A stretch of 64,000 nucleotides of DNA from an uncultured virus (IMG/VR IMGVR_UViG_3300042294_002722) (lineage: Duplodnaviria; Heunggongvirae; Uroviricota; Caudoviricetes): the IMG/VR virus record IMGVR_UViG_3300042294_002722; one strand, written 5' to 3'. Made by a program: the position numbers and the translations under genes. The notes below the pieces were generated by a model. It did no database searches, had not been told where the DNA came from, and saw nothing but the letters and a program-made list of their open reading frames with translations. How positions within the stretch are numbered: the first letter of the stretch is position 1; each line of letters opens with the position of its first letter. This document shows, piece by piece, positions 8,009 to 49,465 of the stretch.

Positions 8009-8010
8009 AG

Positions 8011-8243: not shown

Positions 8244-8290
8244 AAAAGAAACCCCGGCCATGCGTAGGGGAGTAACGCAATGGCCGGGGT
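8244..8290 (-). terminator. Intrinsic terminator after the major capsid gene
   Basis: Stem ACCCCGGCCAT/ATGGCCGGGGT followed by TTCTTTT on the minus strand. Confidence 0.8.
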
Positions 8291-8321
8291 GCAGCGGGGG
8301 GCTTTGTGACTTTAGCTAGGA

Positions 8322-9374: not shown

Positions 9375-9394
9375 CTTTGTTTTTGTCCTTCGGA

Positions 9395-9829: not shown

Positions 9830-9831
9830 GT

Positions 9832-11019
9832 TTAGCCTTTGACATCAAAGGAAGACGGGGGAAGGAAACCTTTTACAACGACCGAATCACCGGCCATTCC
9901 AGCAGAACCGGCAAACTTAGCCGGGGTCTGTGGCTTGTTTTCTGGGGCAGCGTTGACGACCAAGGCCGCCATCTTCTGCAATGTAACGGTAGGCATTGCT
10001 GCCAGTTCTTCGTTACTGAATGAGTTTTGTGGATTGGCAGCGATTTTGGCGGTCAACGCATTGCGATGATCGGCATTTACAACCAATGCTTCTTCGATTT
10101 GGGCCTTGATCGCGGCGGGCGCGACAGCCAAAACGTCTTCAAGCGATTCTGCCTTGTTAGCGACTGGCACTTCGACAACCTTTTCCACAACTCGTTCGAG
10201 TTTGGTAAGGGCTTCTGCTTGCGAGTCTGACAGAGATTCCACAAAATCCTTGTGGTCATCTCCCAGTGCCTTCAAAAGTTGTTCCTTGGACATGCTGACC
10301 TTCGTATTGGTGATAATAGGCTCGGAGGTATCAGTCTTACTAATTTCAGTCCGATTCCCTATTAGTGTAACTAATCCATCTTTGGCCGTAAAATTTTCGG
10401 TGTAAAAGATGCCATTAAGGGTGTAAGTAGCCACACCCTCGAAGGATTCGTTAGATCGATTTACCAGGAGTCCTGCCCCGTCTTTTACGCTACAGGCCCC
10501 TACGCCGTTAAGGATAATAGCCAGATGGTCCGGTTTGAAATTCCTGGCTTTTCCTTGGTATTCTCGACCGTTGTGAATGCCTTGAGAAAGTTCGTTATCT
10601 ACGAACAAACCAGTAGAAACCTCTAAGGGGGCTTCCTTAGTCAAGGCTTCCTTAATCCTATGAGCGCCGGGAACCGTATCAAGACGGGATTCCTCAAACC
10701 AAGCCTGAGCGCGAAGCTTCTTAGTCTTAGAATTCCAGGATGTATTGAGAACCATGCCGATGCCTACGGTATCGATAGCTTCGGGGGTGCATCCGGAAAT
10801 CTTTACACCATCAGAAGCTTGAGGGTGTCCGACTGTGATTGGCCGGTGATTCCAGCCATTCACACTCTTAGAAATTTCTTCGCCGTCATAGAAAAGTGCG
10901 CCCTGGTTCCCGGCAAAGACTCCTTCCAGAATCATTACTACCGGGGCAACCAGATAGTTACGACCGCCGAGAGTTTTTCTTTGGACTTTCGTTGATAGAT
11001 TCGCAACTAACTTTTCCAT
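9832..11019 (-). CDS. Prohead protease (DUF2213-like) fused to scaffold region
   Basis: PITVGHP, LEVSTG, PDHLAIIL..GACS motifs; helical C-terminus. Confidence 0.85.
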   Translation of the reverse strand: MEKLVANLSTKVQRKTLGGRNYLVAPVVMILEGVFAGNQGALFYDGEEISKSVNGWNHRPITVGHPQASDGVKISGCTPEAIDTVGIGMVLNTSWNSKTKKLRAQAWFEESRLDTVPGAHRIKEALTKEAPLEVSTGLFVDNELSQGIHNGREYQGKARNFKPDHLAIILNGVGACSVKDGAGLLVNRSNESFEGVATYTLNGIFYTENFTAKDGLVTLIGNRTEISKTDTSEPIITNTKVSMSKEQLLKALGDDHKDFVESLSDSQAEALTKLERVVEKVVEVPVANKAESLEDVLAVAPAAIKAQIEEALVVNADHRNALTAKIAANPQNSFSNEELAAMPTVTLQKMAALVVNAAPENKPQTPAKFAGSAGMAGDSVVVKGFLPPSSFDVKG

Positions 11020-11326
11020 CGTTTTTCACCAGATGCAGGGCTTTTTCACCGAGACAGAAGAATTCTGGGATTAAATATCCGAACAGTTCGTTCGTACTCG
11101 CGGTGGGCATTGCGTGTAGAACATGCCAAATTCGGTCGGTTACGGCATCCTTACTATTGTAGTCTGCTGAGTTGCATTGGCAATTTTTGATAGCCTTGCC
11201 AACACTAACAGCCCCAGAAGAGGCTACCACAGAATGATAAGCCCCTTCTACTTTACAGACATCGTCTGCATCGGTGTGAAGGACTTCATAGAACTGCCAT
11301 GCTAAGTCTTGGTTGAAGTTAATCAT
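10958..11326 (-). CDS. Hypothetical protein
   Basis: 122-aa ORF coupled (ATGA overlap) to the portal gene. Confidence 0.5.
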   Translation of the reverse strand: MINFNQDLAWQFYEVLHTDADDVCKVEGAYHSVVASSGAVSVGKAIKNCQCNSADYNSKDAVTDRIWHVLHAMPTASTNELFGYLIPEFFCLGEKALHLVKNDGKVSCESINESPKKNSRRS

Positions 11327-12891
11327 TCTTGTGCCGTTGATGGAAGGGTGGGGGAAATCTTCTTGGGGTCTGCCGGTTGAACGACGTTTTCTGGTGTTTT
11401 CGAGGGGTCTTTGGCTTGATCTGGTTTAGGCATGTTAGGTATAGAGGTCGGGATGTTACCGTCCTGTCCCGTCATACCCAACATTGCCTCTGCCTGCCTA
11501 ATCACCAAAGAGCGGCCTGTTTCAGGGGCTTTCATGATGGCTTCTACTTCCTGATACGGAAGCAGCATGATCTTAGAAAGCCAAGCATCCAGCGGAATAA
11601 TAGATTCTGCACCTGCTGTGGCGTATCTAGCCAATGCCTCAGTTCTCTTCAAACCGACTTCCGCTTTTTCGGCCTGTGTCATTTCGGCCAGCGGGGTCCA
11701 CTTAACACTGTACTGCTTGACTTCGCCGTCTATAATCTCTGGCGAGGGCAACGCGCCGTACTGAATCATGCGGTCCAGTACAGGTCGTATGATTGTAGGG
11801 GCTACATACATTTCTCGCCTCAAAGCCACCCGTTCAGTCCAGGTGATGGAATCCTGCGAGGACGCGACGTTCGCAGACTCTGCTCCGGTAAACAATCGGG
11901 TAGGTATTCCTTTAGTGGTGGCGATAATCCGCAAGATGTTGTTTACAAACGGCTGCGGGTCTGCGATCTGCGGCGTAAGGGACTTCATACTTACGCCAAC
12001 ACCGGCAAAGTACCTAGTAAGTCCTTCCTCCCACTTTTGAATCTCGTCTTTAATCGCGTCCCGTTGTTCTTCGTCCAGTTCACCATTGCGAGGATCGACC
12101 TCAAAACTATAACCTGGGAACCCGCCCTTCCAGAACATCTCGCCTGCGCCTGCCAGAATCTTTCTTAAATCTAGCAGCCTATTAAAGACATTTTCCATTC
12201 GGGGCATTCCGAAGATTTCACTTGTAAGCAGGTTGTCTGCAACGTGAATACATCGCGACCAATGTACTCTAAGAGTCTCGGTAGCCGGGGAGACGTTGGG
12301 AGCTTCTCCCGTAGCGTCGTCGATTGTTGGCTCATAGAATTGCAAATTGTAATACTTTGGAAGCCCGTATCGAGGGTTTGTCCGGTCGGTTTCGTAGGCT
12401 GCGATCTGTACAGAGGATTCGTCAAACACTCTGTAGTAAAGCACTTTGGATTCCCCGGGTGTTTTAGACGGACGGTCTATGGAAAATCCGGGAGCAGGTT
12501 TATCAAAGTCTTTGCCGTCATCCAAGCCGACGAATAAAAGCCCAAAGCGACCAATCCCACTAACTCGGTCGAGGCGATGAAGATACGAAAATAATCGAGT
12601 CGAAGATACCAACTTATCAACTGCGACTTCAAAAGCTGTTTCACGTTCTTCCTCCGTTTCCCAGATTTGAGGGTACTCTTTCCAACATTCATTTGGTTCC
12701 AAATCCACCACCCGGCTGGCGACATCGTTTCGCCTGTACATCCGAGCATAGTCGCGGGTAGCTATTTGCTCTGGATAGCCGCATTCCTTATCCACATCCC
12801 GAGTGCCGTAACGCCCGTCTAGCAACTTACTTAGGAACGAGGTCCGACTAAGCAGCGAATTTACGACAAAAGCATTGGTTAGATCGCTCAT
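11323..12891 (-). CDS. Portal protein (DUF1073-type)
   Basis: YARMYRRNDVASRVVD, NPRYGLPKYY, VHWSRCIHV, GIPTRLFTG motifs; directly downstream of terL. Confidence 0.85.
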   Translation of the reverse strand: MSDLTNAFVVNSLLSRTSFLSKLLDGRYGTRDVDKECGYPEQIATRDYARMYRRNDVASRVVDLEPNECWKEYPQIWETEEERETAFEVAVDKLVSSTRLFSYLHRLDRVSGIGRFGLLFVGLDDGKDFDKPAPGFSIDRPSKTPGESKVLYYRVFDESSVQIAAYETDRTNPRYGLPKYYNLQFYEPTIDDATGEAPNVSPATETLRVHWSRCIHVADNLLTSEIFGMPRMENVFNRLLDLRKILAGAGEMFWKGGFPGYSFEVDPRNGELDEEQRDAIKDEIQKWEEGLTRYFAGVGVSMKSLTPQIADPQPFVNNILRIIATTKGIPTRLFTGAESANVASSQDSITWTERVALRREMYVAPTIIRPVLDRMIQYGALPSPEIIDGEVKQYSVKWTPLAEMTQAEKAEVGLKRTEALARYATAGAESIIPLDAWLSKIMLLPYQEVEAIMKAPETGRSLVIRQAEAMLGMTGQDGNIPTSIPNMPKPDQAKDPSKTPENVVQPADPKKISPTLPSTAQE

Positions 12892-14312
12892 TAGAGTACG
12901 CCTAGTCTGACTTGATTACGTTGCAAAAGGGAAAAGGCTCCAGACGAAGCATCGACTTGGTCATCGTTTTTCCCATTTGGAAAAAACGCCAATTCCTCGA
13001 AATAGGGTTTTAGGTAAGGGCCTTTTACTATGTAAACAGTGCCTGCGTTGACCTGGACACTAAACGTATCGGCCCGTAATTCTTTCTTGCCGCTAGCTGT
13101 CATGGCTTCCACAGGAAATCCTGCTAGTCGCTTAATGGTTTCTCGGGCCGAATCAACGCCTGCGGAACCGGGTTCTTGTTCGATCCCTATTCGCACTCTT
13201 GCACCGTCCGAAATAGCTGTTCGCAGAATAACTTGCTCACGCTCATCGGTAGACCACTGACCTCGTTTGATATCCAAAATCCAGTAAGTACCGTCCTTGT
13301 GCAGACCCATTTTAACACCAACAGTGAAGTCGGCATAATTCTTGGCAGTGGCGGCCTTATCCCAGAACCTAACGATTTTCTTAAAAGCTGCCGGTGGAGG
13401 GGGATAATCTACCTCTACGATCCGGTCGGGCTTGAACATACCCCCGCCAAGGGGAATCGGGTCTTGCAGAATCTGCCCAGAGTACCCGAATTGGCCCATT
13501 TCGGTCTTCAATCGTTCTAAAACCAGCCTAGAAAGCCTCACGGGATCAAATAATCCGTCAACATATTGATCCCGAAGTTCCAGCGGGGTCACTTTTTCAG
13601 TGATTTCCCCTGGCAGGCAAATGTGCCTAATTCGGTCAGACCCCCGAGAAAGGTACAATTCAGAAGGGTCGTTTTGGTGCAGTCTTTGCATCGTAACGAA
13701 GGTTACGGTCACATCCTTGTTGACTTTTCGGCTTGTAATGGTTTCCTTACACCATGTATTAGCCGTTTCCAGGTCGGCACGGGATCGCACCCCCTTGGGG
13801 TCGATGGGATCGTCAATACTGATGATGTGCGCGTGCATCCCCGTCACAGAGCCGCCTACGGCAACCGCATAACGATCTCCCCCAAGTGTGTTAGCCCAGT
13901 GGCTTTTACTGGTTGTGTCTGGTGACAATTTGATGTGGGGAAACGCCCGCTGATATAAAGGACTTTCCAGAATCTGCCGGGACTTTCCGGACAAGTCCAA
14001 AGCTAGTGCGTCCGTGTAGGACGCTCCGATAATCCGCAAGTGTGGGGCTTTAGTCCAAGCCCAAGGAGCTAGCATGACCGAGAATAGCGTGGATTTCGTG
14101 GTCCCTGGGGAGATATTGGTCAGAATGTCGTGGGGGCAATCTTCGCCCGCGATAACTCGTTCGACGGCTTCTTGGATAACGTCGCACAGGTAGCGGATAT
14201 GCCAGTTGAAAACTGGCGGGTCTTTGATGATGGTGTGCCAGAAATTCTTCACAAAGGCAAAATAGCTATCACGGCAAGTCTCTGCCAGTAATTTGTAGTA
14301 GTCTAATTCCAC
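12891..14312 (-). CDS. terL: Terminase large subunit
   Basis: NISPGTTKST (Walker A variant), IISIDDPIDP (Walker B), MQRLHQND, RFWDKAAT, FFPNGKNDDQVDA nuclease motif. Confidence 0.95.
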   Translation of the reverse strand: MELDYYKLLAETCRDSYFAFVKNFWHTIIKDPPVFNWHIRYLCDVIQEAVERVIAGEDCPHDILTNISPGTTKSTLFSVMLAPWAWTKAPHLRIIGASYTDALALDLSGKSRQILESPLYQRAFPHIKLSPDTTSKSHWANTLGGDRYAVAVGGSVTGMHAHIISIDDPIDPKGVRSRADLETANTWCKETITSRKVNKDVTVTFVTMQRLHQNDPSELYLSRGSDRIRHICLPGEITEKVTPLELRDQYVDGLFDPVRLSRLVLERLKTEMGQFGYSGQILQDPIPLGGGMFKPDRIVEVDYPPPPAAFKKIVRFWDKAATAKNYADFTVGVKMGLHKDGTYWILDIKRGQWSTDEREQVILRTAISDGARVRIGIEQEPGSAGVDSARETIKRLAGFPVEAMTASGKKELRADTFSVQVNAGTVYIVKGPYLKPYFEELAFFPNGKNDDQVDASSGAFSLLQRNQVRLGVL

Positions 14313-22467: not shown

Positions 22468-22737
22468 ATGAGCAACGCAACAACCGCACGCGACACACTG
22501 GTTTACGAAGTCACTATTACCGATCTTTGGGCAGAGGAAGGGGGATGGTCAGGCAACTATTCTTGGGTACGTCGATTCACTGTTTCGGTTCCTGCCAACT
22601 GGTCAGACTTGCGGATTGCCCGCAAGATCAAACGGGTTGCCGGGTTGCAGGGATGGAAGACTGATTTTTGGGCAGGTTGTGATTTTTGCTGGCGCGACGG
22701 ATGCGTAGGGGCTTACGCTGAATTGCGATACGAATAG
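22468..22737 (+). CDS. Hypothetical early protein
   Basis: AAAGGA RBS, GNYSWVRR motif; its stop codon overlaps ribozyme copy 1. Confidence 0.65.
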   Translation: MSNATTARDTLVYEVTITDLWAEEGGWSGNYSWVRRFTVSVPANWSDLRIARKIKRVAGLQGWKTDFWAGCDFCWRDGCVGAYAELRYE

Positions 22738-22809
22738 CAGAGGGGCACGGGCTATCCCGTGCTAATGCACCCCGGGCAACTTCGCTCGGTTGCTGGTCCC
22801 CAGTCCAGG
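22737..22809 (+). ncRNA. Twister-like self-cleaving ribozyme, circularly permuted (P5-type topology), copy 1
   Basis: GCA-GAGGG / P1 GCACGGG-CTAT-CCCGTGC / U^AA-UGC / P3 CCGGGC..GCTCGG / P4 CTGG-TCCC-CAGT-CCAG; predicted cut 22763^22764. Confidence 0.8.
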
Positions 22810-23721: not shown

Positions 23722-23722
23722 T

Positions 23723-23795
23723 GCAGAGGGGCACGGGGTAACCCGTGCTAATGCACCCCGGGCAACTTCGCTCGGTTGCTGGTCCCAAGTCCAGG
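23723..23795 (+). ncRNA. Twister-like ribozyme copy 2
   Basis: Same fold as copy 1; P1 capped by a GNRA loop (GTAA); canonical GGTCCCAAG; predicted cut 23749^23750. Confidence 0.85.
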
Positions 23796-25042: not shown

Positions 25043-25125
25043 TGGAACCGCAAACGATTTTCGTCCTGGTTGCGTTTGCAATCGGGGCACTGGGGTTTCT
25101 TGGTTTTCTCCTCGATCACAAATAG
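25042..25125 (+). CDS. 27-aa hydrophobic micropeptide MEPQTIFVLVAFAIGALGFLGFLLDHK
   Basis: TAATG-coupled to the upstream gene; stop overlaps ribozyme copy 3. Confidence 0.6.
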   Translation: MEPQTIFVLVAFAIGALGFLGFLLDHK

Positions 25126-25196
25126 CAGAGGGGCACGGGCTATCCCGTGCTAATGCACCCCGGGCAACTTCGCCCGGTGCTGGTCCCAAGTCCAGG
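25125..25196 (+). ncRNA. Twister-like ribozyme copy 3
   Basis: Same fold; P3 is fully Watson-Crick here (CCGGGC/GCCCGG); predicted cut 25151^25152. Confidence 0.85.
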
Positions 25197-38100: not shown

Positions 38101-39476
38101 AAGTCATTAAGCATGAAGGCAACGAGGAACGTCATGCCATAGTCGCACTGGTACTCGACCCCAAGGTATTAGCCGAGGTCGCCCCGTCTTGGGAGGGCAA
38201 GGGGTTTGGTTCCAGATGGGCGAATCTGGTCGCGCAGTGGGCAGTTGACCACTGGAACAAATACAAAACCCCTCCCACACCAGGAGACTTGGAGGGGATT
38301 TTTACCGCATGGTCCCCGACTGCCGACGATGCTTTGGTCAAGATTGTCGAAGACTGGTTAAGCAATCTACCCGGCGAATCGACTTTGAACTCTGATTACG
38401 CCATCGACCGCATCCGGCAAATTGTACAGCAAAATGCCATACATAGTCTGGGGGTGGCTCTGACGGGACTGACCGAGCAGAACCGACTAGAAGACGCTCA
38501 AAACGTCTTGGCCCTCTGGAAGGCCCCTAGAATCGGTCAGGAAGCATCCGGAGTGTTTCCGCTACAGGACGCTAATCTTGTTGACGAAGCGTTCCAGACG
38601 GCCTGCCAGGAGCCTTTAATACAGTATCCAGGGGCCTTGGGTGAGTTCTTCGGGCCTGTACTGGCAAAAGATGCGTTTGTGGCGTTTCTAGCCCCGGAAA
38701 AAACGGGCAAGACCACGGTACTGTTAGACCTCGCATGGCGGGGCGTAGCTCAAGGTAAACGGGTCGCATTCATATCCTGCGGCGATATGTCGCAGTCGCA
38801 GGTCATCGCTAGGCTGATTCCTAGGGTCTGCAAGTCCCCCATTTCGGGGGGTTTGGTCAGCATCCCTGTTTCTGTCACCTACGAGAACAAGGAACCCAGA
38901 GTTGTTTGGGAGCAAACCACTACCAGAAAAGTCAGCAAAGAAGACGCGAAAAAAGCATTCGTTGAAGCAGGAGGGGATGATCCTTCCCGGTTTAGGCTTT
39001 TAACGTACCCCGCCGGGACCGTTACCGCTAGTGACATCACCTCATTGGCATCTCGATGGGCTGACGAGGGATGGACTCCCGAGATCATCGTAATCGACTA
39101 TGCGGACATCTTGGCCTTGCCTCGCGGTATCAAGGAAACCCGAGACGGCATTGACGCAAACTGGAAGGAACTGAGGGCACTTTCGACACAGTTTCGGTGC
39201 TTGGTTGCCACGGCTACCCAGTCAGATACGGAAGGCTACAGTGCATGGTTGCTGTCTAAGAAGAACTTCTCGGACTGCAAAAAGAAGGTGGCGCACGTTA
39301 CCGCGATGATCGGTCTTAACATGACCGAGCAAGAGCGCCGTATGCAAGTGTGCCGCTACAACTACGTTGCCTTGCGGGAAGCGGAGTTCATGGCTCAGAA
39401 ACCCGTTTATATCTCGGTAGCCGGATGTACTAAGGTCGGTCGCCCGAGCATGGTGAGCGCATGGCCTACCGATTGA
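38097..39476 (+). CDS. dnaB: Replicative DnaB-like helicase
   Basis: APEKTGKT, IVIDYADIL, TATQS. Confidence 0.9.
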   Translation: MKVIKHEGNEERHAIVALVLDPKVLAEVAPSWEGKGFGSRWANLVAQWAVDHWNKYKTPPTPGDLEGIFTAWSPTADDALVKIVEDWLSNLPGESTLNSDYAIDRIRQIVQQNAIHSLGVALTGLTEQNRLEDAQNVLALWKAPRIGQEASGVFPLQDANLVDEAFQTACQEPLIQYPGALGEFFGPVLAKDAFVAFLAPEKTGKTTVLLDLAWRGVAQGKRVAFISCGDMSQSQVIARLIPRVCKSPISGGLVSIPVSVTYENKEPRVVWEQTTTRKVSKEDAKKAFVEAGGDDPSRFRLLTYPAGTVTASDITSLASRWADEGWTPEIIVIDYADILALPRGIKETRDGIDANWKELRALSTQFRCLVATATQSDTEGYSAWLLSKKNFSDCKKKVAHVTAMIGLNMTEQERRMQVCRYNYVALREAEFMAQKPVYISVAGCTKVGRPSMVSAWPTD

Positions 39477-40318
39477 GATACCGATTTAGCGCAGACAACA
39501 TAAAGCTTTCCCACCTGCGGTGCTTCGTCACCTTAGTTGACTCCTTTGATGCGGTAGAAGCCAGCCAGAAACTTGGGATAGACTGTGCTTCTTTAGAACA
39601 AAGAGTCAGGACGCTGCAACACAGACTAAAGGTGTCGCTGTTCACTAAACGGCACAGGTTTTATGAGTGCAAGCTATCAGCATCAGGAGAAATCTTCTAC
39701 AAGTACGCAAAGAAAATCCTGAGACAGTACGACAAAGTCTTAAAGGAGATGCGAGCGGTCGATATAACCGGCGGCAGAGGGCCTGTTTACGCAAGATGCA
39801 AGATAGGATGCCGCCGTGAAATGCTGACAAAAGCAGATTCTGTTCTCACCCAGATAGAAAAAGTGTTTCCTTATGGGGTGGTTACATGCCAAAGTGAACT
39901 TGAGTTTCGGGACAAGTTCACATCAGGGGAAATCAGCATGTCGGTCGGGTACACAGCGATCCCTGGCATGGTCAGCGAAGTTTGCGGAAGCGAGATTTTC
40001 ACTGCTGTCGTGCGTAAAGATTACGATCTGGCACTTAGCAATTACCCTGTTCCAATAATCTCTGTAGTAGGATTAGCAAACGTAATACAGGAAGCTAAGG
40101 ATAAGTTGCTCTTATTTTGCGGTATCGAAACAAGGGTTGTTTGGGAAGTTGATAACGTAGTCGCCGCTAGATGGTCAGCCGAGGCAGGCGCAGGAATTGC
40201 AATTATTCCCCACAGAATGCTTACACCTCAGTTGGTTTCTTTGTTTCCGGAAGAAATTTTCCTAGAAAAGCCGATTTTGGTGCATAAGACACCCGCCTTA
40301 CAGCGTAAATTGCAGTAG
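39461..40318 (+). CDS. LysR-family transcriptional regulator (divergent)
   Basis: HLRCFVTLVD..AxxLG..LQHRLKVSLFTK..LSASGEIF wHTH; EAGAGIAIIP C-terminal motif. Confidence 0.8.
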   Translation: MAYRLRYRFSADNIKLSHLRCFVTLVDSFDAVEASQKLGIDCASLEQRVRTLQHRLKVSLFTKRHRFYECKLSASGEIFYKYAKKILRQYDKVLKEMRAVDITGGRGPVYARCKIGCRREMLTKADSVLTQIEKVFPYGVVTCQSELEFRDKFTSGEISMSVGYTAIPGMVSEVCGSEIFTAVVRKDYDLALSNYPVPIISVVGLANVIQEAKDKLLLFCGIETRVVWEVDNVVAARWSAEAGAGIAIIPHRMLTPQLVSLFPEEIFLEKPILVHKTPALQRKLQ

Positions 40319-42586: not shown

Positions 42587-43189
42587 ATGGGCAGCGAAGC
42601 AACCGTATTCAAAAACGTAGATCGATTACCAAAGATCATAGGGCTTAACGGCCCCATAGGTTCGGGGAAGGACACGGTCGCTTCGTACTTAGGTATTTAC
42701 TTTACCTACGAAATCATGGGGTTTTCGGACCCGGTGTACGAAAACCTATACCGGCTCAATCCCGGTATCGTAGTGGGACATAACAAAGTGGAGTACCTCC
42801 AAACCATTGTAAACACGCACGGATGGGACTACGCCAAACGCCGGTATTCTATCGTTCGCGGGATGCTTCGCACAGAGGGCACTGAGAACGGGAGGGAGAT
42901 ACATGGTAGCGATTGCTGGGTGAAGGTCGCCCAAAGGCGGGTGGAGAACTCCAACAAGCCTCGGTTTGTGTTCCGGGATGTTCGGTTTCCGGAGGAAGTA
43001 GATTTTATTCGTTCCCTGAACGGCGAAATCTGGAGGATCGAAGGTCGAGTGTCGGACGAAGTTCAGAATCTTCCCAACCATATTTCGGAACAGCATGTCA
43101 TTGAACCCGACAAAATCATCGTAAATGACGGAACATTGTCGCGTCTGTACCATCGCGTCAACACCCTACTTTCTTGGTATCTGGAGTAA
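42587..43189 (+). CDS. Deoxynucleoside monophosphate kinase
   Basis: GLNGPIGSGKDT, GTENGR, DVRFPEE, HISE, NDGT. Confidence 0.9.
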   Translation: MGSEATVFKNVDRLPKIIGLNGPIGSGKDTVASYLGIYFTYEIMGFSDPVYENLYRLNPGIVVGHNKVEYLQTIVNTHGWDYAKRRYSIVRGMLRTEGTENGREIHGSDCWVKVAQRRVENSNKPRFVFRDVRFPEEVDFIRSLNGEIWRIEGRVSDEVQNLPNHISEQHVIEPDKIIVNDGTLSRLYHRVNTLLSWYLE

Positions 43190-43191
43190 TT

Positions 43192-44100
43192 ATGGGCCTC
43201 TATCAAAAATATCGACCTACGCTGCTCTCCGAGATCATCGGACAGCCTACGGCAGTTCAGCAACTACGGAAAATGGATGCAGAGGATTCCGTGCCTCACG
43301 CAATCCTTATGTCCGGGCCTAGCGGGTGCGGGAAGACCACGGCGGCTCGGATTGTTGCAAAACTTGTGGATGCAGCGCCGACTGGCGTTACCGAAGTAAA
43401 CTGCGCTCTCAGTAACGGGGTCGATGTCATTCGAGAGATCGAATCCAAGATGCACTTGAAACCGCTCGGAGGGAAAGCCCGGGTTTATATCCTGGACGAA
43501 TTTCATGCGGTCACTCCGGCAGGCCAGCGCGGAATGCTTAAATTGCTGGAGGATACACCGGCACACATCTACTTCATTCTTTGCACCACCAACCCGGAAA
43601 AACTGGAAAAACCGGTTGTGACCAGATGTGTCAACATCAAATTCAATAATCTATCTGTATCAGAACTAAAGAAGCTTATACAGAGGGTAGCGACCGAAGA
43701 ACAGATTCATCCCGGCAAGATGCCCGATCCGGCAGTAATTGCGACGGCGGCAGATGGCAGTGCTAGGAAAGCCTTGGTTTTATTGGAACAGATCATCGCT
43801 TCTGATTCTGCGGCAGACTGGCATGAAATTTTGGAAACCGGGGTCCAGGCTACCGAGTATTTTGACATGGTTCGCGATCTTTACGCTGGCCGGTTCACCA
43901 TGAGCAAATGGGGACCGAAGCTCAAGGAACTCGGAGAGAACGATGTAGAGGGTTTGCGGATGTGCATCTTGTCTTACGGGGCTACGATTTTGTGCGGCGG
44001 CAGAAACGAGGATGCCATGCGAATCATGGAGTTATTCACGGAACCGTTTTTTTCGTCAAAAAAACCCGGATTTATTTTGAATCTTGCGAAGTGTCAGTAG
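43192..44100 (+). CDS. dnaX: Clamp loader, DNA pol III gamma/tau-like
   Basis: LYQKYRP, GPSGCGKTT, ILDEFH, LKLLED, TRC. Confidence 0.92.
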   Translation: MGLYQKYRPTLLSEIIGQPTAVQQLRKMDAEDSVPHAILMSGPSGCGKTTAARIVAKLVDAAPTGVTEVNCALSNGVDVIREIESKMHLKPLGGKARVYILDEFHAVTPAGQRGMLKLLEDTPAHIYFILCTTNPEKLEKPVVTRCVNIKFNNLSVSELKKLIQRVATEEQIHPGKMPDPAVIATAADGSARKALVLLEQIIASDSAADWHEILETGVQATEYFDMVRDLYAGRFTMSKWGPKLKELGENDVEGLRMCILSYGATILCGGRNEDAMRIMELFTEPFFSSKKPGFILNLAKCQ

Positions 44101-44135
44101 TAGACTAGGTTAAGTCCCAACCAACGGAGGTAACA

Positions 44136-44558
44136 ATGGACGTAGACATCACAGTAGACCGCCACAAGCTCGATGAGCAGCTTGAGGCTATTCCAGGGGA
44201 CGTACTCTCTTGGTCGCGGCAGGCAGCTATCCAAGTGGAAACGCTGCAACGCGCTGAAAACAATTTGAAGTTAGTAGAAGCCCGGTTATCCATCGCGATC
44301 CGGCAGAATCCGCTCGATTACGGTTTTGCTAAGGTTACTGAGGATTTGGTCAAGGCCATTATCCTGACGCAACCGGATTACGTCGAAGCTCTCGACCACG
44401 TTGCAGAAGCCCGTGCAGAGTTGACCGCTACCCGTGGGGTTGTGGATGCTCTTGAGATCAAGCGATCCAGTTTGAAGTACCTTGCCGAGTTGACGGTAGC
44501 GGGGTATCTTGGTTCCATGTCCGTCAATCCTCGCAACCCATCAGGAGTTAAGAGCTAA
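44136..44558 (+). CDS. UvsY-like recombination mediator
   Basis: Helical protein, KVTEDLVKAII...ALEIKRSSL; adjacent to SSB. Confidence 0.55.
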   Translation: MDVDITVDRHKLDEQLEAIPGDVLSWSRQAAIQVETLQRAENNLKLVEARLSIAIRQNPLDYGFAKVTEDLVKAIILTQPDYVEALDHVAEARAELTATRGVVDALEIKRSSLKYLAELTVAGYLGSMSVNPRNPSGVKS

Positions 44559-44559
44559 C

Positions 44560-45627
44560 ATGCGTATTTCATCATCTAAGACCCGCCAAGAAAATAAAGC
44601 CAACAACACGGTCGGCGTTCTTCGCGTTCCGCAGGGAATCGACCTTTGGAAGGTCGAAAAGCCCGGGATGTACCAGATGGTCATTCTTCCGTACAAGGTT
44701 CCGGACGGGGCGAAACACCCCTACGCAAAACCTGGGGAATTCCATTACAGCCGCGATTACTACATCCACCGCAACTTTGGTCCGTCCGGTAAAGACTACG
44801 CGATCTGCCCTCGGTTGACTGTCGGCGCTCCTTGCCCGATCTGCGAAGCGATCAAGCAACAGCTTGCCGCTGGCAACATCGACAAGGACACCGCTAAGAA
44901 GATGTCTGCGTCTCACAGGACGCTGTACAACGTCTGGTTGCCTAAAGAAAACAAGGTCGTACTGTTCGACACCAGCTTCTTCGGATTTACCGAAGTTCTG
45001 AATGCGGCAGTCGATGCCAAGGTGCAGATTCCAGGCATGGAGTGGGCCGATTACTTCGCGGACCCTGTTGAGGGTTCTACGCTCTACGTCCAGTACGTCG
45101 AGCAACCCCTTCCTTCGCCCGGCGCAAAGTTTTGCAAGGCGATTTCCATCGACTTTGTACAGCACAAAGAAGCGATTCCTGCCGAGATTCTGTCTCAGGC
45201 AGTATCTCTCGACTTGTCGCTAGTCGTCGAAAACTACGATGTCCTCAAGAATCGATTCTGGGACACCGAGCCAGTCGCTACGGAAAGCGCACAGGAGCAG
45301 GAAACTCCTGTCACAAGGACGCAGGTTGCAGTGACGCAACCTCAGACACCGAAGTCTGCACCGGCTGAACCTCCTGCGGTAGCCCCAAAGGTGACTGGAT
45401 TCACCAAGGGACAGATTCTGCATCATAAGGATATGGGGGAGGTCAGCTTTGTTAAATCCAGCGATGGATCAGCAACGGTTCTGAACAGCCAGGACGACCC
45501 AGTCAAAGTCAAGATGTCCGATCTCCAGACACAGCCTTGGCCGGATAGTCAATCAGCATCCCTATCCGAGCCTGTTGCAGTGTCCAACGGCGGGGACGAT
45601 GCCTGGGATTCTGGCTGGAAGGATTAG
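44560..45627 (+). CDS. Single-stranded DNA-binding protein (gp32-like)
   Basis: ILPY, IHRN, CP..CPICE zinc site, acidic/aromatic tail DDAWDSGWKD. Confidence 0.75.
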   Translation: MRISSSKTRQENKANNTVGVLRVPQGIDLWKVEKPGMYQMVILPYKVPDGAKHPYAKPGEFHYSRDYYIHRNFGPSGKDYAICPRLTVGAPCPICEAIKQQLAAGNIDKDTAKKMSASHRTLYNVWLPKENKVVLFDTSFFGFTEVLNAAVDAKVQIPGMEWADYFADPVEGSTLYVQYVEQPLPSPGAKFCKAISIDFVQHKEAIPAEILSQAVSLDLSLVVENYDVLKNRFWDTEPVATESAQEQETPVTRTQVAVTQPQTPKSAPAEPPAVAPKVTGFTKGQILHHKDMGEVSFVKSSDGSATVLNSQDDPVKVKMSDLQTQPWPDSQSASLSEPVAVSNGGDDAWDSGWKD

Positions 45628-45729
45628 CAAAAAGCTTGTCGGGTAGCGCCCGACTGATCTGGTGGATGCGGTGAAGCACCAGTAAGAATGGGCCGTAGCT
45701 TTCGCGATCACGGCAGATAGACCGCACAA

Positions 45730-45854
45730 GGTTCTGCGGCGTGGACAGCGACACGCGGAGAGCTATGCAACGCCTAAACGCATAGACGCAACGGATTCGG
45801 AACAGATCGAGTACCGCCAAGTATAGCCAGCAGGTGCAATTCCCGCCAGAACCA
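45730..45854 (+). ncRNA. Enlarged tRNA-like RNA 1 (125 nt)
   Basis: Acceptor GGTTCTG/CAGAACC+A, D-like arm GCGTG..CACGC, T-arm GCAGG-TGCAATT-CCCGC; ~70-nt middle closed by GCTATGC/GTATAGC. Confidence 0.6.
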
Positions 45855-45858
45855 TTGA

Positions 45859-45947
45859 GACGAACGCTCGGATTCACCGAGCCGAAAGGAAAGAGGTAAA
45901 CATGAGTAACGACAGTAATGAGACTTCGGTGCAATCCGTTGTTCGTC
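45859..45947 (-). mobile_element. attC-like site 1
   Basis: GACGAAC...GTTCGTC cores; GGATT-CACCGAG pairs with TTCGGTG(C)AATCC leaving an extrahelical C. Confidence 0.75.
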
Positions 45948-46207
45948 GGCGAATTGTCCAGGCGAGCTTGTGCTTGCGATTTTACACATCGGCAGGGTGG
46001 ACACGCGAGGAGGTTCGGAAACTGCTGCGAGACGACAAACGGTTGGCGCGTGTGTGTCCTCGGTACTTCGATGAACGCGACAAGTTGGGACAAGGAAGTT
46101 TTGAACTGGAGGATGGGCTACCACACGACGATTGCGATTACTTCGCAGTGTACGGAGCGGGCGAACCATTTTCAGCGGAGGCGTTGGCGTTGCACGACGT
46201 AGTGTGA
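45902..46207 (+). CDS. Cassette gene 1, hypothetical; starts inside attC-like site 1
   Basis: GAGG RBS and ATG in the hairpin loop; stop lies just before site 2. Confidence 0.65.
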   Translation: MSNDSNETSVQSVVRRRIVQASLCLRFYTSAGWTREEVRKLLRDDKRLARVCPRYFDERDKLGQGSFELEDGLPHDDCDYFAVYGAGEPFSAEALALHDVV

Positions 46208-46213
46208 TCGTCA

Positions 46214-46302
46214 GACGAACGCTCGGATTCACCGAGCCGAAAGGAAAGAGGTAACAAAAATGAGCGAGACGAATGAGGCTTCGGTGCAATCCATTGTTCG
46301 TC
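46214..46302 (-). mobile_element. attC-like site 2
   Basis: Left arm identical to site 1 over ~40 bp; same cores and bulge. Confidence 0.75.
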
Positions 46303-46565
46303 GTCCGTGGGATTTTGTGTGCAAGTGGTACGGAGTGGATGAGATTCACGATTTCATTACACGGTCACGACTATTGCGGTCAGTCGGTGATTTACCGCAA
46401 GTTCCAGAGGACGTTTATAGTAGAGAGTTTGCCGAGTTTCTGACCGAGCAGTATAGGCTTGCGATGCGAAAGGGTGCGGAGTTGGCTGTTGCGGAAATGA
46501 GGTCGATGCCATGCGTCCACGATCTTGTGAAACAGCACAATGAAAATACGACGACTGAGTTTTAG
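46260..46565 (+). CDS. Cassette gene 2, hypothetical
   Basis: N-terminus ..EASVQSIVRR encoded by the attC arm; stop 3 nt before site 3. Confidence 0.65.
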   Translation: MSETNEASVQSIVRRPWDFVCKWYGVDEIHDFITRSRLLRSVGDLPQVPEDVYSREFAEFLTEQYRLAMRKGAELAVAEMRSMPCVHDLVKQHNENTTTEF

Positions 46566-46568
46566 TCA

Positions 46569-46658
46569 GACGAACGCACAGGATAACCCAGTGCGAGGAG
46601 TAAACATGGACAACGAAAAACAACAGACCGAGCACTTGGGTTCATCCGATTGTTCGTC
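46569..46658 (-). mobile_element. attC-like site 3
   Basis: GACGAAC/GTTCGTC cores; GGAT-AACCC-AGTGC pairs with GCACT(T)GGGTT(C)ATCC leaving two extrahelical bases. Confidence 0.75.
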
Positions 46659-46836
46659 GGATGATTGGGATTCCTCGGATGACGACGTCATTGACACCGA
46701 GTGTGACCATTGCGGAGAAATGAAGCGATGTTGTCTAACAAACGATCCGTATATGAGAGAAATACATCCAGAAGAGGAAAATCCGGAGTCGTACTGGTGT
46801 TATCAATGTTGGGACATCCGACACGGAGACATATAG
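46606..46836 (+). CDS. Cassette gene 3, small Zn-binding acidic protein
   Basis: GAGGAG RBS in the loop; paralogue of 36806-36997. Confidence 0.7.
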   Translation: MDNEKQQTEHLGSSDCSSDDWDSSDDDVIDTECDHCGEMKRCCLTNDPYMREIHPEEENPESYWCYQCWDIRHGDI

Positions 46837-46843
46837 ACACAAC

Positions 46844-46964
46844 CGATCGGCGGCGTGATGGGAACACGCGACCCGTGGCGATGGCGACTAGGGGCCACAC
46901 ACGGCGATAAAACGAAAGCGAGTTGCGCATAGCTTGCTAGCAGGTTCGAATCCTGTCCGATCGA
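46844..46964 (+). ncRNA. Enlarged tRNA-like RNA 2 (121 nt)
   Basis: Acceptor CGATCGG/CCGATCG+A, D-like arm GCGTG..CACGC, canonical T-arm GCAGG-TTCGAAT-CCTGT. Confidence 0.7.
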
Positions 46965-46968
46965 TTAA

Positions 46969-47058
46969 GACGAACGCACAGGATAACCCAGTGCGAGAAA
47001 GGAAAACGACAATGGCAGAAGACAGTAACGAGCACTTGGGTTCATCCGATTGTTCGTC
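46969..47058 (-). mobile_element. attC-like site 4
   Basis: Both arms identical to site 3, different loop. Confidence 0.75.
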
Positions 47059-47284
47059 GGGGAATTTTGAACACATTGAAGTCCGTCCGCCGGATTGGGT
47101 GCTGAACGCAATTTCCGAGCGATGCGTCACGCATCACAACGCTTGCGATTGTAGGGAGTATCGGTTTGCAAAGATGCAGCAAGCTTTGATTCGAATCATG
47201 ATTTGGGCAGAGCATGACGCTATCAGTGGGGAAAAAGCTATGGAACACATTTCTAGGAAGTGCCATGAAGCACTAGAGGACTAG
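47012..47284 (+). CDS. Cassette gene 4, hypothetical (CVTHHNACDCRE motif)
   Basis: GAAAGGA RBS in the loop; N-terminus EHLGSSDCS encoded by the attC arm. Confidence 0.65.
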   Translation: MAEDSNEHLGSSDCSSGNFEHIEVRPPDWVLNAISERCVTHHNACDCREYRFAKMQQALIRIMIWAEHDAISGEKAMEHISRKCHEALED

Positions 47285-47436
47285 AAATCAAAACGTATTA
47301 TTACCTTGGCACGGGTGGGGTGTATCTTTTACTTGGAGGCCCCGAATGTGCTGGTGAGCGAAGAGTGCCGGGTTCCCATTGACCCTAACCTTCGATATAA
47401 TGGTGTCCGTTCTCCTTTCGGACAGCCGTTATTGAC

Positions 47437-47465
47437 AGCCGGGAAAGACCGGCATTTTTCTTTCC
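47437..47465 (+). terminator. Possible intrinsic terminator
   Basis: GCCGG-GAAAGA-CCGGC followed by ATTTTTCTTT. Confidence 0.5.
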
Positions 47466-47492
47466 TTTAGCCCTATAGAAAGGGACTACGGT

Positions 47493-47744
47493 ATGAAGAG
47501 GTTTATTTGGAGTGTTGTTTTGGTGCTTAGTGCCTCGCTCGGAGCGCAGGCACAGGATTGCCAGAACGGAAAATGCGTGCTTCCACGGGTTCAATCAGCC
47601 GTATCTGCTACCGCAGAAAAAGCTGTAAAACTTGTGGAAATCCCTGTGAAAGCGACTGCACAAGTGGCTCAGAAGTCTGTAAGATTTGTTGCAAGACCCG
47701 CCCGCAAGTTCGGCACAGTGTTTCGCAGGGTCCGCTGTCGGTAG
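47493..47744 (+). CDS. Small secreted basic protein (signal peptide, CQNGKC)
   Basis: Signal-peptide-like N-terminus; GAAAGGGA RBS. Confidence 0.65.
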   Translation: MKRFIWSVVLVLSASLGAQAQDCQNGKCVLPRVQSAVSATAEKAVKLVEIPVKATAQVAQKSVRFVARPARKFGTVFRRVRCR

Positions 47745-47753
47745 AACGATACT

Positions 47754-47828
47754 TCCCCTATAGTTTAATCCAGGAAAAACGCGGCACGATTCGTGGCCGA
47801 TTTGATGGTTCAACTCCATCTAGGGGAA
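47754..47828 (+). tRNA. tRNA or pseudo-tRNA with an aberrant anticodon arm (identity undetermined)
   Basis: Acceptor TCCCCTA/TAGGGGA, D-arm GTTT/AAAC, T-arm GATGG-TTCAACT-CCATC; anticodon loop CGATTCG lacks U33 and purine 37. Confidence 0.7.
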
Positions 47829-47849
47829 CTTAATTCAGGAGGGTAATCA

Positions 47850-48404
47850 ATGATTATTTACTTAGACGTAGACGGGGTTCTCGCAGACTGGGTGACAGGG
47901 ATTCAGGTTTCAGCGGAAATCGATCCTTCTGTCTGGGATACCGTGGGCCACGGTTTACTACCCACGGAACATCAAGCAAAGCTAGATGCGGTAATGAGTA
48001 CACAGTCATTTTGGACTGGGCTAGCATTGTATCCCTGGGCAAATGATCTTGTGGACTGGGCATCGACTTGGGGAAAGGTAGTGTTTTGCACACAGCCGTT
48101 TAGCTCGCCAGAGTGCTTACATGGTAAGTACCAGTGGCTAAACGATCACTTCGGGGCCACGATGGAGAACATCGTGTTCATCAAGCAAAAATGGCTACTC
48201 GCACATCCGACTTGCCTTTTGCTGGATGACAACGTCGAGAACTGTAACCGGTTTCAGTGGCGAGGCGGTCATTCGATTGTCTTCCCACAACCCTGGAACA
48301 GTGCGGGCATCCCATTGCATGATTCCGAGATGCGTGAAAAATCCCTGGAACAAATCAGAACATCTATTCGTAACATCTCTAGCATTGTCAGGTGGTATCA
48401 ATGA
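47850..48404 (+). CDS. 5'(3')-deoxyribonucleotidase (HAD, NT5C-like)
   Basis: YLDVDGVLAD, KYQWL, LLDD, QPWN. Confidence 0.88.
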   Translation: MIIYLDVDGVLADWVTGIQVSAEIDPSVWDTVGHGLLPTEHQAKLDAVMSTQSFWTGLALYPWANDLVDWASTWGKVVFCTQPFSSPECLHGKYQWLNDHFGATMENIVFIKQKWLLAHPTCLLLDDNVENCNRFQWRGGHSIVFPQPWNSAGIPLHDSEMREKSLEQIRTSIRNISSIVRWYQ

Positions 48405-49465
48405 AAAAAGCAATGAAGACATTGGAAGAAGGCGCGAAACCAAAAGAAGCATCTCGCTTGTACTTGAGCCTCGGGTGTCCTTTACTTAACCTTGCCGTAT
48501 CGGGCGACTGGCGTAAAGGAATGATTGCAGGGACATACTGCTTTTATGTCGGGGACTCATCCAGTGGGAAGACGCTCGCGACCTTGAGTATGCTCGCAGA
48601 GGCGGCTAACGACCCGAATTTCGACGAATACGAGTTGTGGCACATCAACGGCGAAGTGGGGAGCTTCTTTGATTTCGAGGTTTTCTTCGGGAGCAAGGCG
48701 GCCAAACGAATACAGGTGATGACACCCTCTAACGGCCAGCCGATGCTTCTTGAAAAAGTCTATGACTTCCTTGACAAGAAGTTGAGTGAAGGCAAGAAGA
48801 TCGTAGCGGTCTTGGATTCAATGGATAGCTTTTCTACGGAATCCCGGGAAGAGCTTATTCAGGAAAACGCAAAGCGCCGGGAGCAGGGTAAAGATACCCA
48901 GGGGTCTTACGGTGACGGCAAGGCCAAACTGAACTCTGAGCGTCTCCCCAGACTTGTTCAAGGAATTGAGCAGTCTGGCAGCATCGTAGTCTCGATATCT
49001 CAGACCCGGGACAACATCGGCGGCGGTCCTTATGCCCCCGCTAAAACGCGATCCGGGGGCCACGCCATCAAGTTCTACGCCAGTCTTGAAATCTGGACAT
49101 CCCCTGGGAAAGTCATTACCAAGGAATACAAAGGTAAAGACCGGACCATTGGCATTAAACCGGTCTTTCGGATTAAGAAAAACCGAATCAATGGCAAAGA
49201 ACGAACTGTGACGATCCCGATTCTACCTGACTTCGGCATTGATGCTCTTGGTGCGGCGGTCGATTACTTAATCGAAGAAAACGCATGGACAGTGTCAGGA
49301 GGCCGAATCGTTAGCGATCTATACGACAAAAGCTATCACCGCGAGGTACTGGTCAGCAAAATTGAAGAAGATAATCGGGAAACCGAACTGTTTGACAAGA
49401 TGCAAGCAGTTTGGGATGACATCGAAAACGCCATTCGCATTGAAAGAAAGAAGAGGTATTCGTGA
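48401..49465 (+). CDS. recA: RecA/UvsX-like recombinase
   Basis: GDSSSGKT, VLDS, SQTRDNIG, SGGHAIKFYAS, KKNR. Confidence 0.92.
   Translation: MKKAMKTLEEGAKPKEASRLYLSLGCPLLNLAVSGDWRKGMIAGTYCFYVGDSSSGKTLATLSMLAEAANDPNFDEYELWHINGEVGSFFDFEVFFGSKAAKRIQVMTPSNGQPMLLEKVYDFLDKKLSEGKKIVAVLDSMDSFSTESREELIQENAKRREQGKDTQGSYGDGKAKLNSERLPRLVQGIEQSGSIVVSISQTRDNIGGGPYAPAKTRSGGHAIKFYASLEIWTSPGKVITKEYKGKDRTIGIKPVFRIKKNRINGKERTVTIPILPDFGIDALGAAVDYLIEENAWTVSGGRIVSDLYDKSYHREVLVSKIEEDNRETELFDKMQAVWDDIENAIRIERKKRYS

Follow-up and report, generated by a model that had tools for sequence, protein, structure and literature searches.

Four small genes on the + strand of a 64,000-nucleotide stretch of DNA from an uncultured tailed phage (the window) are each accompanied by a long imperfect hairpin. 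Are these hairpins recombination sites of the integron type, and, if so, which enzyme would act on them in a phage? A sequence-only reading had taken them for an integron-like cassette array in which each hairpin loop provides the ribosome-binding site and start codon of an inverted gene. We followed up this reading in the window, in related phage arrays, and in bacterial chromosomes.

The hairpins and their relationship to attC sites

We searched the window for the pattern GACGAAC-N60-90-GTTCGTC. The search returned 4 matches, all on the + strand, where 0.01 was expected by chance, and 4 copies were reached in 0 of 100 shuffles. The four imperfect hairpins of 89 to 90 nt with cores GACGAAC and GTTCGTC that the earlier reading had noticed are thus real features of this DNA, and a covariance model found no additional copy beyond them across the 64 kb. 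Folding with RNA parameters gave long imperfect hairpins for all four (−28 to −35 kcal/mol; z-scores of −2.0 to −4.8). They fall into two types: sites 1 and 2 (type A) are 87% identical, and sites 3 and 4 (type B) have identical arms. The features of the locus are as follows.

45730..45854, + strand: second tRNA-like element, immediately 5' of site 1
45859..45947, + strand: attC-type site 1 (type A), covariance model score 77.6 bits, E value 2e-18; left core GACGAAC, right core GTTCGTC; the + strand is the bottom strand
45902..46207, + strand: cassette ORF 1, 101 aa, without Pfam family; ATG in the loop of site 1
46214..46302, + strand: attC-type site 2 (type A), 81.2 bits
46260..46565, + strand: cassette ORF 2, 101 aa, without Pfam family
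46569..46658, + strand: attC-type site 3 (type B), 82.3 bits
46606..46836, + strand: cassette ORF 3, 76 aa, Cys-rich, without Pfam family; ATG in the loop of site 3
46844..46964, + strand: tRNA-like element in cassette 3; acceptor-like stem of 7 bp, T arm
46969..47058, + strand: attC-type site 4 (type B), 83.1 bits
47012..47284, + strand: cassette ORF 4, 90 aa, without Pfam family
47288..47295, + strand: weak candidate terminal half-core, TCAAAAC then G, after ORF 4

The hairpins matched no described cis-regulatory RNA or ribozyme: no Rfam family lay on them in a gathering-threshold scan of the window or in an E-value scan of 45500-47900. The latter scan had a single hit, to Plastid-ycf2, which fell below threshold, lay on the minus strand of the tRNA-Ile gene, and was rejected as an artefact. 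Elsewhere, the phage carries three Twister-P5 ribozymes between its genes.

An attC site is described as an imperfect palindrome of 57 to 142 nt with inverse heptamers ending in ...AAC and starting with GTT... (PMC2727003). We compared the window sites with this architecture through an alignment of 23 phage copies, from which the phage attC covariance model was built. In this alignment, 88.9% of the cells were paired, versus 67.2% in shuffles; double-sided changes occurred at 19 of 27 pairs, compensatory cells numbered 126 where 47.6 were expected, and 0 of 500 shuffles matched the observed percentage paired or the covariation score. G-U pairs made up 3 of 437 inner-helix cells, a near absence that fits selection on DNA structure. 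AAC and GTT were invariant in all 23 sites, whose lengths span 83 to 92 nt (89 to 90 nt in the window), and a G followed AAC (G8) in every one. The central spacer is unpaired in the consensus (alignment columns 9 to 12 versus column 85), and the loop, a region of 32 columns, is unconserved, with 36 clusters of hairpin interiors.

The extrahelical bases required a correction. The earlier description gave sites 1 and 2 an extrahelical C alone, but the family alignment leaves both a T and a C unpaired on the 3' arm of all four window sites, with the C 6 pairs outward of the T. The same two unpaired bases, 6 pairs apart, characterize the phage sites generally: the T is invariant, and 22 of 23 have a C as the base closest to the R box. 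In 107 host sites, the bulged T was found in 106, and the other bulge was C in 96 and G in 11; AACG was present in 106. Studied attC sites are described as having two or three extrahelical bases on the R''-L'' arm, with a conserved G in L'' and a T 6 to 8 nt from it. Judged by these alignments, the geometry is kept and the conserved G has been replaced by C in this attC lineage, a departure that weighs against the attC assignment and that the host sites share.

Homologs of these sites occur next to integron integrases. The covariance model built from the 23 phage copies (R1) gave 412 matches in 79 bacterial loci, mostly of Pirellulaceae, whose chromosomes hold large one-strand arrays of the window's site family. 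Asking whether the candidate host carries an intI gene, we found that true integron integrases (TIGR02249; 405 to 425 bits against a cutoff of 265) adjoin such Pirellulaceae arrays; two of these arrays (L147 and L148) end 0.4 to 0.6 kb before integrases that score 405 to 417 bits. The attC architecture proposed for the window is thus borne out feature by feature, apart from the C in place of the conserved G, and also by homology to the sites of IntI-bearing host integrons. The assignment of the + strand as the bottom strand holds as well, both from AAC followed by G on the 5' arm with unpaired bases on the 3' arm and from the matching orientation of the host arrays that adjoin intI. We regard the four window hairpins as genuine attC-type sites. 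They belong to the attC family of large Pirellulaceae chromosomal integrons; therefore, Pirellulaceae (Planctomycetota) are the likely host group, and the window phage, which comes from a lake, probably infects planctomycete bacteria.

A CALIN, in the IntegronFinder definition given in PMC4889954, comprises two or more attC sites, separated by less than 4 kb on a single strand, without an intI in the vicinity. The window, with four sites within 1.2 kb on the + strand and no tyrosine recombinase among 75 scanned ORFs, contains such an array. It does not contain a complete integron, with an adjacent intI and an attI. A first pattern scan of viral sequences had yielded 22 loci with true sites in seven of them (L001, L002, L007, L010, L012, L021, and L022); the other 15 had no covariance-model hit and were set aside as apparent chance matches. 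One attC family is common to the large Pirellulaceae chromosomal integrons and to at least 21 nonredundant phage arrays with very different backbones.

A terminal core is present in 15 of 19 related arrays and absent from that of the window: no core complementary to site 4 lies within 1.2 kb, and the outer 4 nt of the half-core at 47288..47295 complement the right core of site 4 at 0 of 4 positions. The terminal elements of related phage arrays form two families (I and II), and nhmmer profiles of both had no match in the window. Nor did 47285-47420 align locally with host attI regions any better than shuffles did. Of the two tRNA-like elements, the one in cassette 3 was called by ARAGORN only under relaxed, intron-allowing settings. 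Contigs in two lake metagenome runs join 46662 to 45736, which places the sequence from 45736 onward behind a site-3-type hairpin.

Orientation, translation signals, and turnover of the cassettes

Each site in the window is associated with one small ORF, as had been observed, and all four ORFs lie on the attC bottom strand with attC preceding the gene. These units are therefore not canonical integron cassettes, which have a top-strand ORF with attC downstream. The inversion extends beyond the window. Of 73 intervals in phage arrays, 68 had the longer ORF on the bottom strand (+), whereas 22 of 26 host intervals of at least 300 nt had it on the top strand (−). Thus, the claim that the genes run opposite to canonical cassettes applies to the phage arrays as a group.

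The ATG lies inside the hairpin loop in all four window sites, with a purine-rich Shine-Dalgarno-like run 6 to 9 nt 5' of it, and the 3' arm is translated into about 10 N-terminal residues, in agreement with the proposal that the right arm encodes the N terminus. The reading frame of the GTTCGTC core differs between sites 1 and 2 and sites 3 and 4; therefore, it is the nucleotide sequence that is conserved. In related arrays, a heuristic start call put the start in the loop for only 32 of 69 cassettes and after the hairpin for 37 of 69, versus 4 of 4 with a loop start in the window. These positions suggest that the hairpin may serve as a translation-initiation module. Counts of promoters and terminators in 43000-49000 were no higher than chance. 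The cargo is probably accessory, and the methyltransferase and Lar cassettes present in related arrays suggest counter-defense functions.

In arrays of attC sites, the individual sites are described as chimeric, the outer part of a core belonging to the neighboring cassette (PMC4889954). We scored the outer four core positions in 21 phage arrays (94 sites). A site's own cores were complementary at 2.17 of 4 positions (random pairing, 1.84), whereas the right core and the left core of the next site were complementary at 3.66 of 4, perfectly so in 54 of 73 cases. The host arrays, used as a control, behaved in the same way (own, 2.10; neighbor, 3.87, with 87 of 95 perfect; random, 1.89). The cores of the phage arrays are thus chimeric in the integron manner.

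Cassettes turn over within conserved backbones. Comparison of related contigs showed that cassette order and content vary, with breakpoints at the cores, and backbones 89 to 92% identical carry unlike cassettes. A 378-nt cassette is 99.2% identical in two different contexts (L031 and L032); the identity begins at AAC and ends just past the next AAC. Site 2 together with ORF 2 is also found in another phage (L025), at 95.5% identity, with a different cassette upstream and a different site downstream. The array of the window itself is identical in its nearest relative (G001/L002), and no turnover was seen for the window phage. In lake metagenomes, contig depth was 100 to 170 at the four hairpins and 10 to 12 in flanking DNA, and the edges of the sites are where contigs part from one another. 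Contig joints linking 45946 to 46570 and 46298 to 46573, among others, were discarded as evidence of excision, given the unknown letters between their two sides and their short flanks.

Which hairpin travels with a gene is partly resolved. Among ORF bodies present in more than one context, four retain the upstream hairpin interior and none retains the downstream interior alone; of those four, three have a different downstream interior, and the fourth has no downstream site in one array. Together with the 99.2% identical cassette, these four bodies argue for movement with the upstream hairpin. For five other bodies (g8, g9, g10, g29, and g34), the upstream hairpin interior in one phage is unrelated to that in another, and for four of these, the same holds for the downstream interior. 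In L023 and in L010/L038, homologous bodies of ORF 4 follow hairpins of two other types. A single bottom-strand crossover does not account for the five bodies with unrelated hairpins; therefore, exchange also takes place at the right core, close to it, or within the hairpin.

Candidate recombinases and rival explanations

The reading that we favor, and consider probable, is that four attC sites without an integron integrase (a CALIN) lie in the replication module of a virulent-type phage and that their cassettes are exchanged via a host IntI. In attC, the AAC triplet on the bottom strand is where integron integrases cleave. A unit starts at the C of one ...AAC core, ends at the AA of the following core, and comprises the interior of the hairpin, the right core, and a single small gene; such units have been exchanged between phages by strand exchange within the AAC triplet on the + (bottom) strand. 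A host IntI, expressed during infection or co-infection, would catalyze the exchange; that Pirellulaceae carry both IntI and the same site family suggests that the host integrase recombines the phage sites. In the window, the variable attC loop contains the ribosome-binding site and start codon, with about 10 N-terminal residues encoded by the 3' arm, and the genes would owe their expression to read-through from the phage operon upstream.

A phage-encoded recombinase, either an unrecognized enzyme or a generic tyrosine recombinase next to the array, could act on the sites instead, which we consider quite unlikely. As previously claimed, no tyrosine recombinase was found in the window: 0 of 75 ORFs matched in a Pfam scan (all ORFs outside it being shorter than 140 aa), and PF00589 had no match in the 64 kb, which are a part of the genome, so that an enzyme could lie elsewhere in it. 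In L032 and L029, tyrosine recombinases do occur at a distance of up to about 0.7 kb from the array; in L044, they abut it, and the contig of G004 has two elsewhere; none was found in G001, G002, G003, or G005. Those adjacent to arrays score 19 to 23 bits against the integron-integrase cutoff of 265. The 208 ORFs that flank 20 arrays fell into 162 clusters, and a scan of representatives of 150 of these revealed no conserved neighbor gene; one site family is common to phages with very different backbones and to host integrons, which also argues against an enzyme of the phages' own.

Alternatively, the hairpins might work mainly in mRNA, as a structured leader presenting the ribosome-binding site and start codon or as a processing mark, with ordinary recombination at the conserved ends, through homology or microhomology, shuffling the modules, as has been suggested for the promoter/stem-loop cassettes of T4-type phages. 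This is unlikely in our judgment, even though the start signals in the loops (4 of 4 window sites; heuristically, 32 of 69 related cassettes), the constant co-orientation of sites and genes, the Twister-P5 ribozymes as RNA-level devices of the same phage, and the exchange of several ORF bodies independently of both flanking hairpins are all in keeping with it. Host arrays contain the same site family but have their genes on the other strand, which means that the conservation of the family cannot be due to a shared role in mRNA. In addition, the helix has almost no G-U pairs, the outer cores match the neighboring site and not their own, a mismatch that a stem needed in RNA would not tolerate, and the start follows the hairpin in 37 of 69 cassettes by the heuristic call, with no Rfam match. 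A third possibility, that the array is an inert piece of a host integron gained by illegitimate recombination, is hardly credible. The identity of the array in the window and G001, the missing terminal core, and the absence of an integrase would suit such a relic. However, host cassette genes lie on the other strand, and passive capture would neither yield 68 of 73 bottom-strand intervals nor build start codons into loops; moreover, pairing is kept by compensatory changes across 36 hairpin types, and cassette content differs among related backbones.

Relationship to known systems and significance

Phage attC arrays without an integrase have already been published (Qi, Rajabal, Ghaly, Tetu and Gillings, 2023; PMC9892861), and IntI1 recombined phage attC sites in that study. 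As far as its account goes, the window resembles those phage CALINs in having an integrase-less attC array, a virulent-type phage, small accessory cargo, and a presumed host integrase; DNA methyltransferases, found in cassettes of the window's relatives, are shared cargo. The orientation of the published arrays is described as typical of bacteria, whereas the genes of the present arrays occupy the bottom strand of attC. Further differences from what is described there are the start codon, often within the attC loop; the Pirellulaceae hosts; and the single attC family in at least 21 phage arrays and in host chromosomes. Cury et al. (2016; PMC4889954) include Planctomycetes among the phyla that bear integrons.

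With sedentary chromosomal integrons, the window shares the attC family, the chimeric R-box signature, and AAC crossover on the bottom strand. Unlike them, it has no intI and no demonstrable attI, its genes are on the opposite strand, and its short array (four sites) is embedded in a phage replication operon. Chromosomal integrons do contain reverse-oriented cassettes, e.g., toxin-antitoxin cassettes with their own promoters, as a minority within canonical arrays. The gene likewise runs opposite to the canonical strand here, but practically the whole array and the phage pool are reversed, with no promoter of its own detected. The PeSL cassettes of T4-type phages (attributed to Arbiol et al., 2010) reportedly consist of early promoters and small stem-loops and act through homologous recombination. 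In both systems, short conserved structured elements flank small unrelated genes in hyperplastic regions, with modular shuffling; in contrast to PeSLs, the elements here are attC homologs with integron-type chimeric cores and no promoter match.

A broader reading, which could nearly as readily be right as wrong, is that Pirellulaceae phages keep their own pool of reversed cassettes with loop-borne translation signals, swapped by IntI among unrelated phages. Each capture would bring a translation-ready gene, with ribosome-binding site, start, and first codons, into a phage operon; many arrays would end in a conserved attI-like element; and host IntI would be exploited during infection to swap counter-defense and other accessory genes.

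Integrons are known as bacterial gene-capture devices. Here, the breakpoints of cassettes that have moved between phages coincide exactly with the triplet that integrases cleave, and the phage pool is a mirror image of the host pool, with translation signals inside the recombination site. The loops show how much coding and regulatory information an attC site can hold without losing its fold. Collectively, these arrays would provide a concrete case, open to experiment, in which a virus diversifies its accessory genes with a recombinase of its host.

Four hairpin sites and their cassette genes

The motif GACGAAC-N60-90-GTTCGTC occurred four times in the 64-kb window, on the + strand only, against 0.01 expected after shuffling. 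The four hairpins with complementary GACGAAC/GTTCGTC cores proposed in the sequence-only reading are thus real.

attC-type sites and cassette ORFs of the window
45859-45947, +, attC-type site 1, type A
45902-46207, +, cassette ORF 1, ATG in the loop of site 1
46214-46302, +, attC-type site 2, type A
46260-46565, +, cassette ORF 2, ATG in the loop of site 2
46569-46658, +, attC-type site 3, type B
46606-46836, +, cassette ORF 3, ATG in the loop of site 3
46969-47058, +, attC-type site 4, type B
47012-47284, +, cassette ORF 4, ATG in the loop of site 4

Each site forms a long imperfect hairpin on either strand (-28 to -35 kcal/mol). The type A sites share 87% identity, and the type B sites have identical arms with unlike loops. 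In all four loops an ATG lies 6-9 nt 3' of a purine-rich run and starts the sole sizeable ORF ahead of the next site. The reading frame through the conserved right core differs between types, indicating that the DNA is conserved and not the peptide.

True relatives of these sites were located by exact-pattern scans of viral contigs and aligned (alignment A1, 23 sites). The ends are invariant only in AACG (left) and TTGTT (right), and the stems diverge widely. The proposed structure paired 88.9% of cells, versus 67.2% in shuffled and 30-42% in slid controls. Changes on both sides were found in 19 of 27 pairs, compensatory cells numbered 126 (47.6 expected), and substitutions were almost all Watson-Crick to Watson-Crick, with G-U in just 3 of 437 inner-helix cells. 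Read inward on the + strand, a 7-bp outer box (NNNNAAC/GTTNNNN) is followed by a G after AAC, then by an unpaired spacer and a first helix of 4-6 bp. Next the 3' arm has an unpaired C, a 6-bp helix separates this from an unpaired T on the same arm, and a last helix of 4-7 bp leads to a free loop. The portion of Bouvier et al. 2009 (PMC2727003) consulted describes attC sites of 57-142 nt with R'/R'' heptamers, most with AAC followed by G, an unpaired central spacer, a variable terminal structure, and an R''-L'' arm bearing two or three extrahelical bases, G and T lying 6-8 nt apart. The phage sites agree with that description, the sole departure being C in place of the extrahelical G; this agreement, and a family common to host integrons (below), uphold the attC architecture first proposed.

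Relationship to host integrons

In one scan with a right-arm pattern, bacterial contigs drawn from one genome per species yielded 81 loci, mostly from Pirellulaceae or other Planctomycetota and including complete chromosomes. A covariance model from A1 (R1) found 412 matches in 79 of them, as long one-strand arrays. The search for intI in this candidate host group, suggested earlier, was positive: with the NCBIfam model of integron integrases, TIGR02249 (cut-off 265 bits), three of five host genomes tested scored above the cut-off, two of them at 405-425 bits. In host locus L147, sites span 3007-14144 and an IntI match begins at 14578, so that the array reaches the integrase; in L148, sites at 84-12232 precede an IntI ORF at 12774-14234 (417.5 bits). 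Both loci read sites (+) then intI (+). In a canonical integron the array is read on its top strand and intI points divergently away from it. The layout seen here is the mirror image, so the strand called + is the attC bottom strand; the placement of AACG and the unpaired bases concurs, bearing out the original strand assignment. Among 107 host sites, AACG and the T bulge were each present in 106, and the other bulge was C in 96 and G in 11. Phage sites scored 77-85 bits with the covariance model, on par with host sites. Judged by sequence and predicted structure, the phage sites are of the same family as the attC sites of Pirellulaceae integrons. L148 also carries, at 3717-10461, many short units (153-166 nt between sites) with no convincing ORF, several having near-identical site ends; these may be gene-less cassettes.

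We compared the four variable outer core bases across 21 non-redundant phage arrays (94 sites). Complementarity between a site's own left and right cores (2.17 of 4) was not above random pairing (1.84, sd 0.13); between a right core and the next site's left core it was 3.66, perfect in 54 of 73 cases. Bona fide host arrays gave 2.10 (own), 3.87 (neighbour; perfect in 87/95) and 1.89 (random). Chimeric sites are described as a signature of integron arrays in the consulted part of Cury et al. 2016 (PMC4889954), and the neighbour-matched phage cores are this signature.

Cassette orientation, turnover and array ends

Of 73 intervals between sites in phage arrays, 68 have their longer ORF on the + (bottom) strand; of 26 intervals of 300 nt or more in the two host arrays adjoining intI, 22 have it on the - (top) strand. 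The phage pool therefore mirrors the host pool, and the phage genes do run opposite to canonical cassettes. Heuristic start calls for 69 cassettes of related arrays placed 32 starts within the hairpin, most of them 34-47 nt in, and 37 beyond it, mostly just after.

As the proposed comparison of relatives anticipated, similar backbones hold different cassettes. Phage loci L031 and L032 have 89% identical upstream flanks, carry four and eight sites, and share one cassette; L023 and L048 have similar flanks (92% and 70%) and share none. The L031/L032 cassette (378 nt, 99.2% identity) is identical from exactly the left-core AAC, the outer bases being CGAT versus GTAG, to exactly after the AAC of the following core. 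These limits are predicted by a + strand crossover inside AAC, with the hairpin moving with the downstream gene. Window site 2 with ORF 2 has a 95.5% identical copy between different neighbours in L025. The L025 array (L025, contig G004; 8000-11000) is a 52-55% GC island in a different phage of ~60% GC, as if the array or its cassettes had been acquired horizontally. Five ORF bodies (g8, g9, g10, g29 and g34) follow hairpin interiors that are unrelated from phage to phage, four of them also preceding unrelated interiors, and g8 homology is limited to right core-ORF-left core. Exchange thus takes place at the right core or inside hairpins too, and could reflect top-strand events or homologous recombination.

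Fifteen of 19 related phage arrays terminate in an NNNNAAC half-core that perfectly complements the last site, followed in 13 of the 15 by one of two conserved repeat-rich elements, neither present in the window.

Terminal elements, just after the last cassette
Family I: L023, L025, L029, L038, L041, L046, L052
Family II: L024, L031, L032, L047, L048, L053

The family II profile matches the array end in host locus L074 (E 1.2e-5) and, in locus L142, a position that precedes a partial intI by ~160 nt (E 3.7e-3). This points to attI-like sites in phages.

Phage context and candidate recombinase

The window encodes portal, terminase, HK97-like capsid protein, PolA, primase, helicase, clamp loader and RecA, and is a virulent-type phage. 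Its array has an unannotated 372-aa gene on one side and tRNA-Ile/NT5C/RecA on the other; in L024, which has homologous replication genes, the array is elsewhere, after an SNF2 helicase. Among 87 proteins encoded by cassettes in 19 arrays, 76 had no Pfam match, the window's four included; matched cassettes include two N6/N4 DNA methyltransferases, Lar restriction-alleviation, GIY-YIG and DUF4326 proteins. The locus is present in lake-water metagenomes, where contigs part ways at site edges and contig depth at the hairpins is ~10x that of the flanks.

Two tRNA-like elements each stop a few bases short of an attC site.

45730-45854, +, tRNA-like element, ~120 nt
46844-46964, +, tRNA-like element, ~120 nt

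In both, a 7-bp acceptor-like stem and D and T arms accompany a long insertion where the anticodon would lie, and their 3' ends are 71% alike. ARAGORN detects them if its settings are relaxed to allow introns, and not otherwise; two metagenome runs join the first element behind a hairpin of the site 3 type. ARAGORN also called tRNA-Ile(GAT) at 47754-47829, where Rfam scans gave no tRNA family and just a sub-threshold Plastid-ycf2 match to the other strand. The discrepancy probably stems from the library or from clan filtering. Elsewhere, three matches to the Twister-P5 self-cleaving ribozyme (+; 22736-22808, 23722-23794 and 25124-25195; 39.7-51 bits, above the Rfam gathering score) each lie between co-oriented phage genes. 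A 736-aa ORF (4792-7002, -) contains an intein bearing a LAGLIDADG-type homing endonuclease (Intein_splicing above cut-off; Hint, Hom_end and LAGLIDADG_3 weaker), and the replication module includes a LysR-type regulator (39461-40318, +; HTH_1, weak LysR_substrate) with a homologue in L024.

No tyrosine, serine or HUH recombinase matched among the 75 window ORFs, in line with the earlier statement on tyrosine recombinases, and PF00589 was not found in the related phage contigs G001, G002, G003 and G005. Tyrosine recombinases adjoin three phage arrays (L032, L029 and L044), those of L032 and L044 scoring 19-23 bits with TIGR02249, and G004 has two away from its array; all are generic. As no constant neighbour gene of phage arrays was found either, host IntI is the most economical candidate to act on the phage sites.

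That virulent phages can carry attC arrays lacking an integrase was already known: the consulted part of Qi et al. 2023 (PMC9892861) reports 17 CALINs (clusters of attC sites without an integron integrase) in phages and recombination by IntI1 of five of six phage attC sites tested. The literature searched, exclusive of supplements, yielded no systematic gene-strand reversal in attC arrays, no start signals inside an attC loop, and no attC family common to Pirellulaceae integrons and many unrelated phages. On its sequence features, the window array is a CALIN whose attC sites are of the host type and whose cassettes are reversed, which supports the overall reading first put forward; recombination of these sites may depend on a host integrase, and the loop may have a role in translation.
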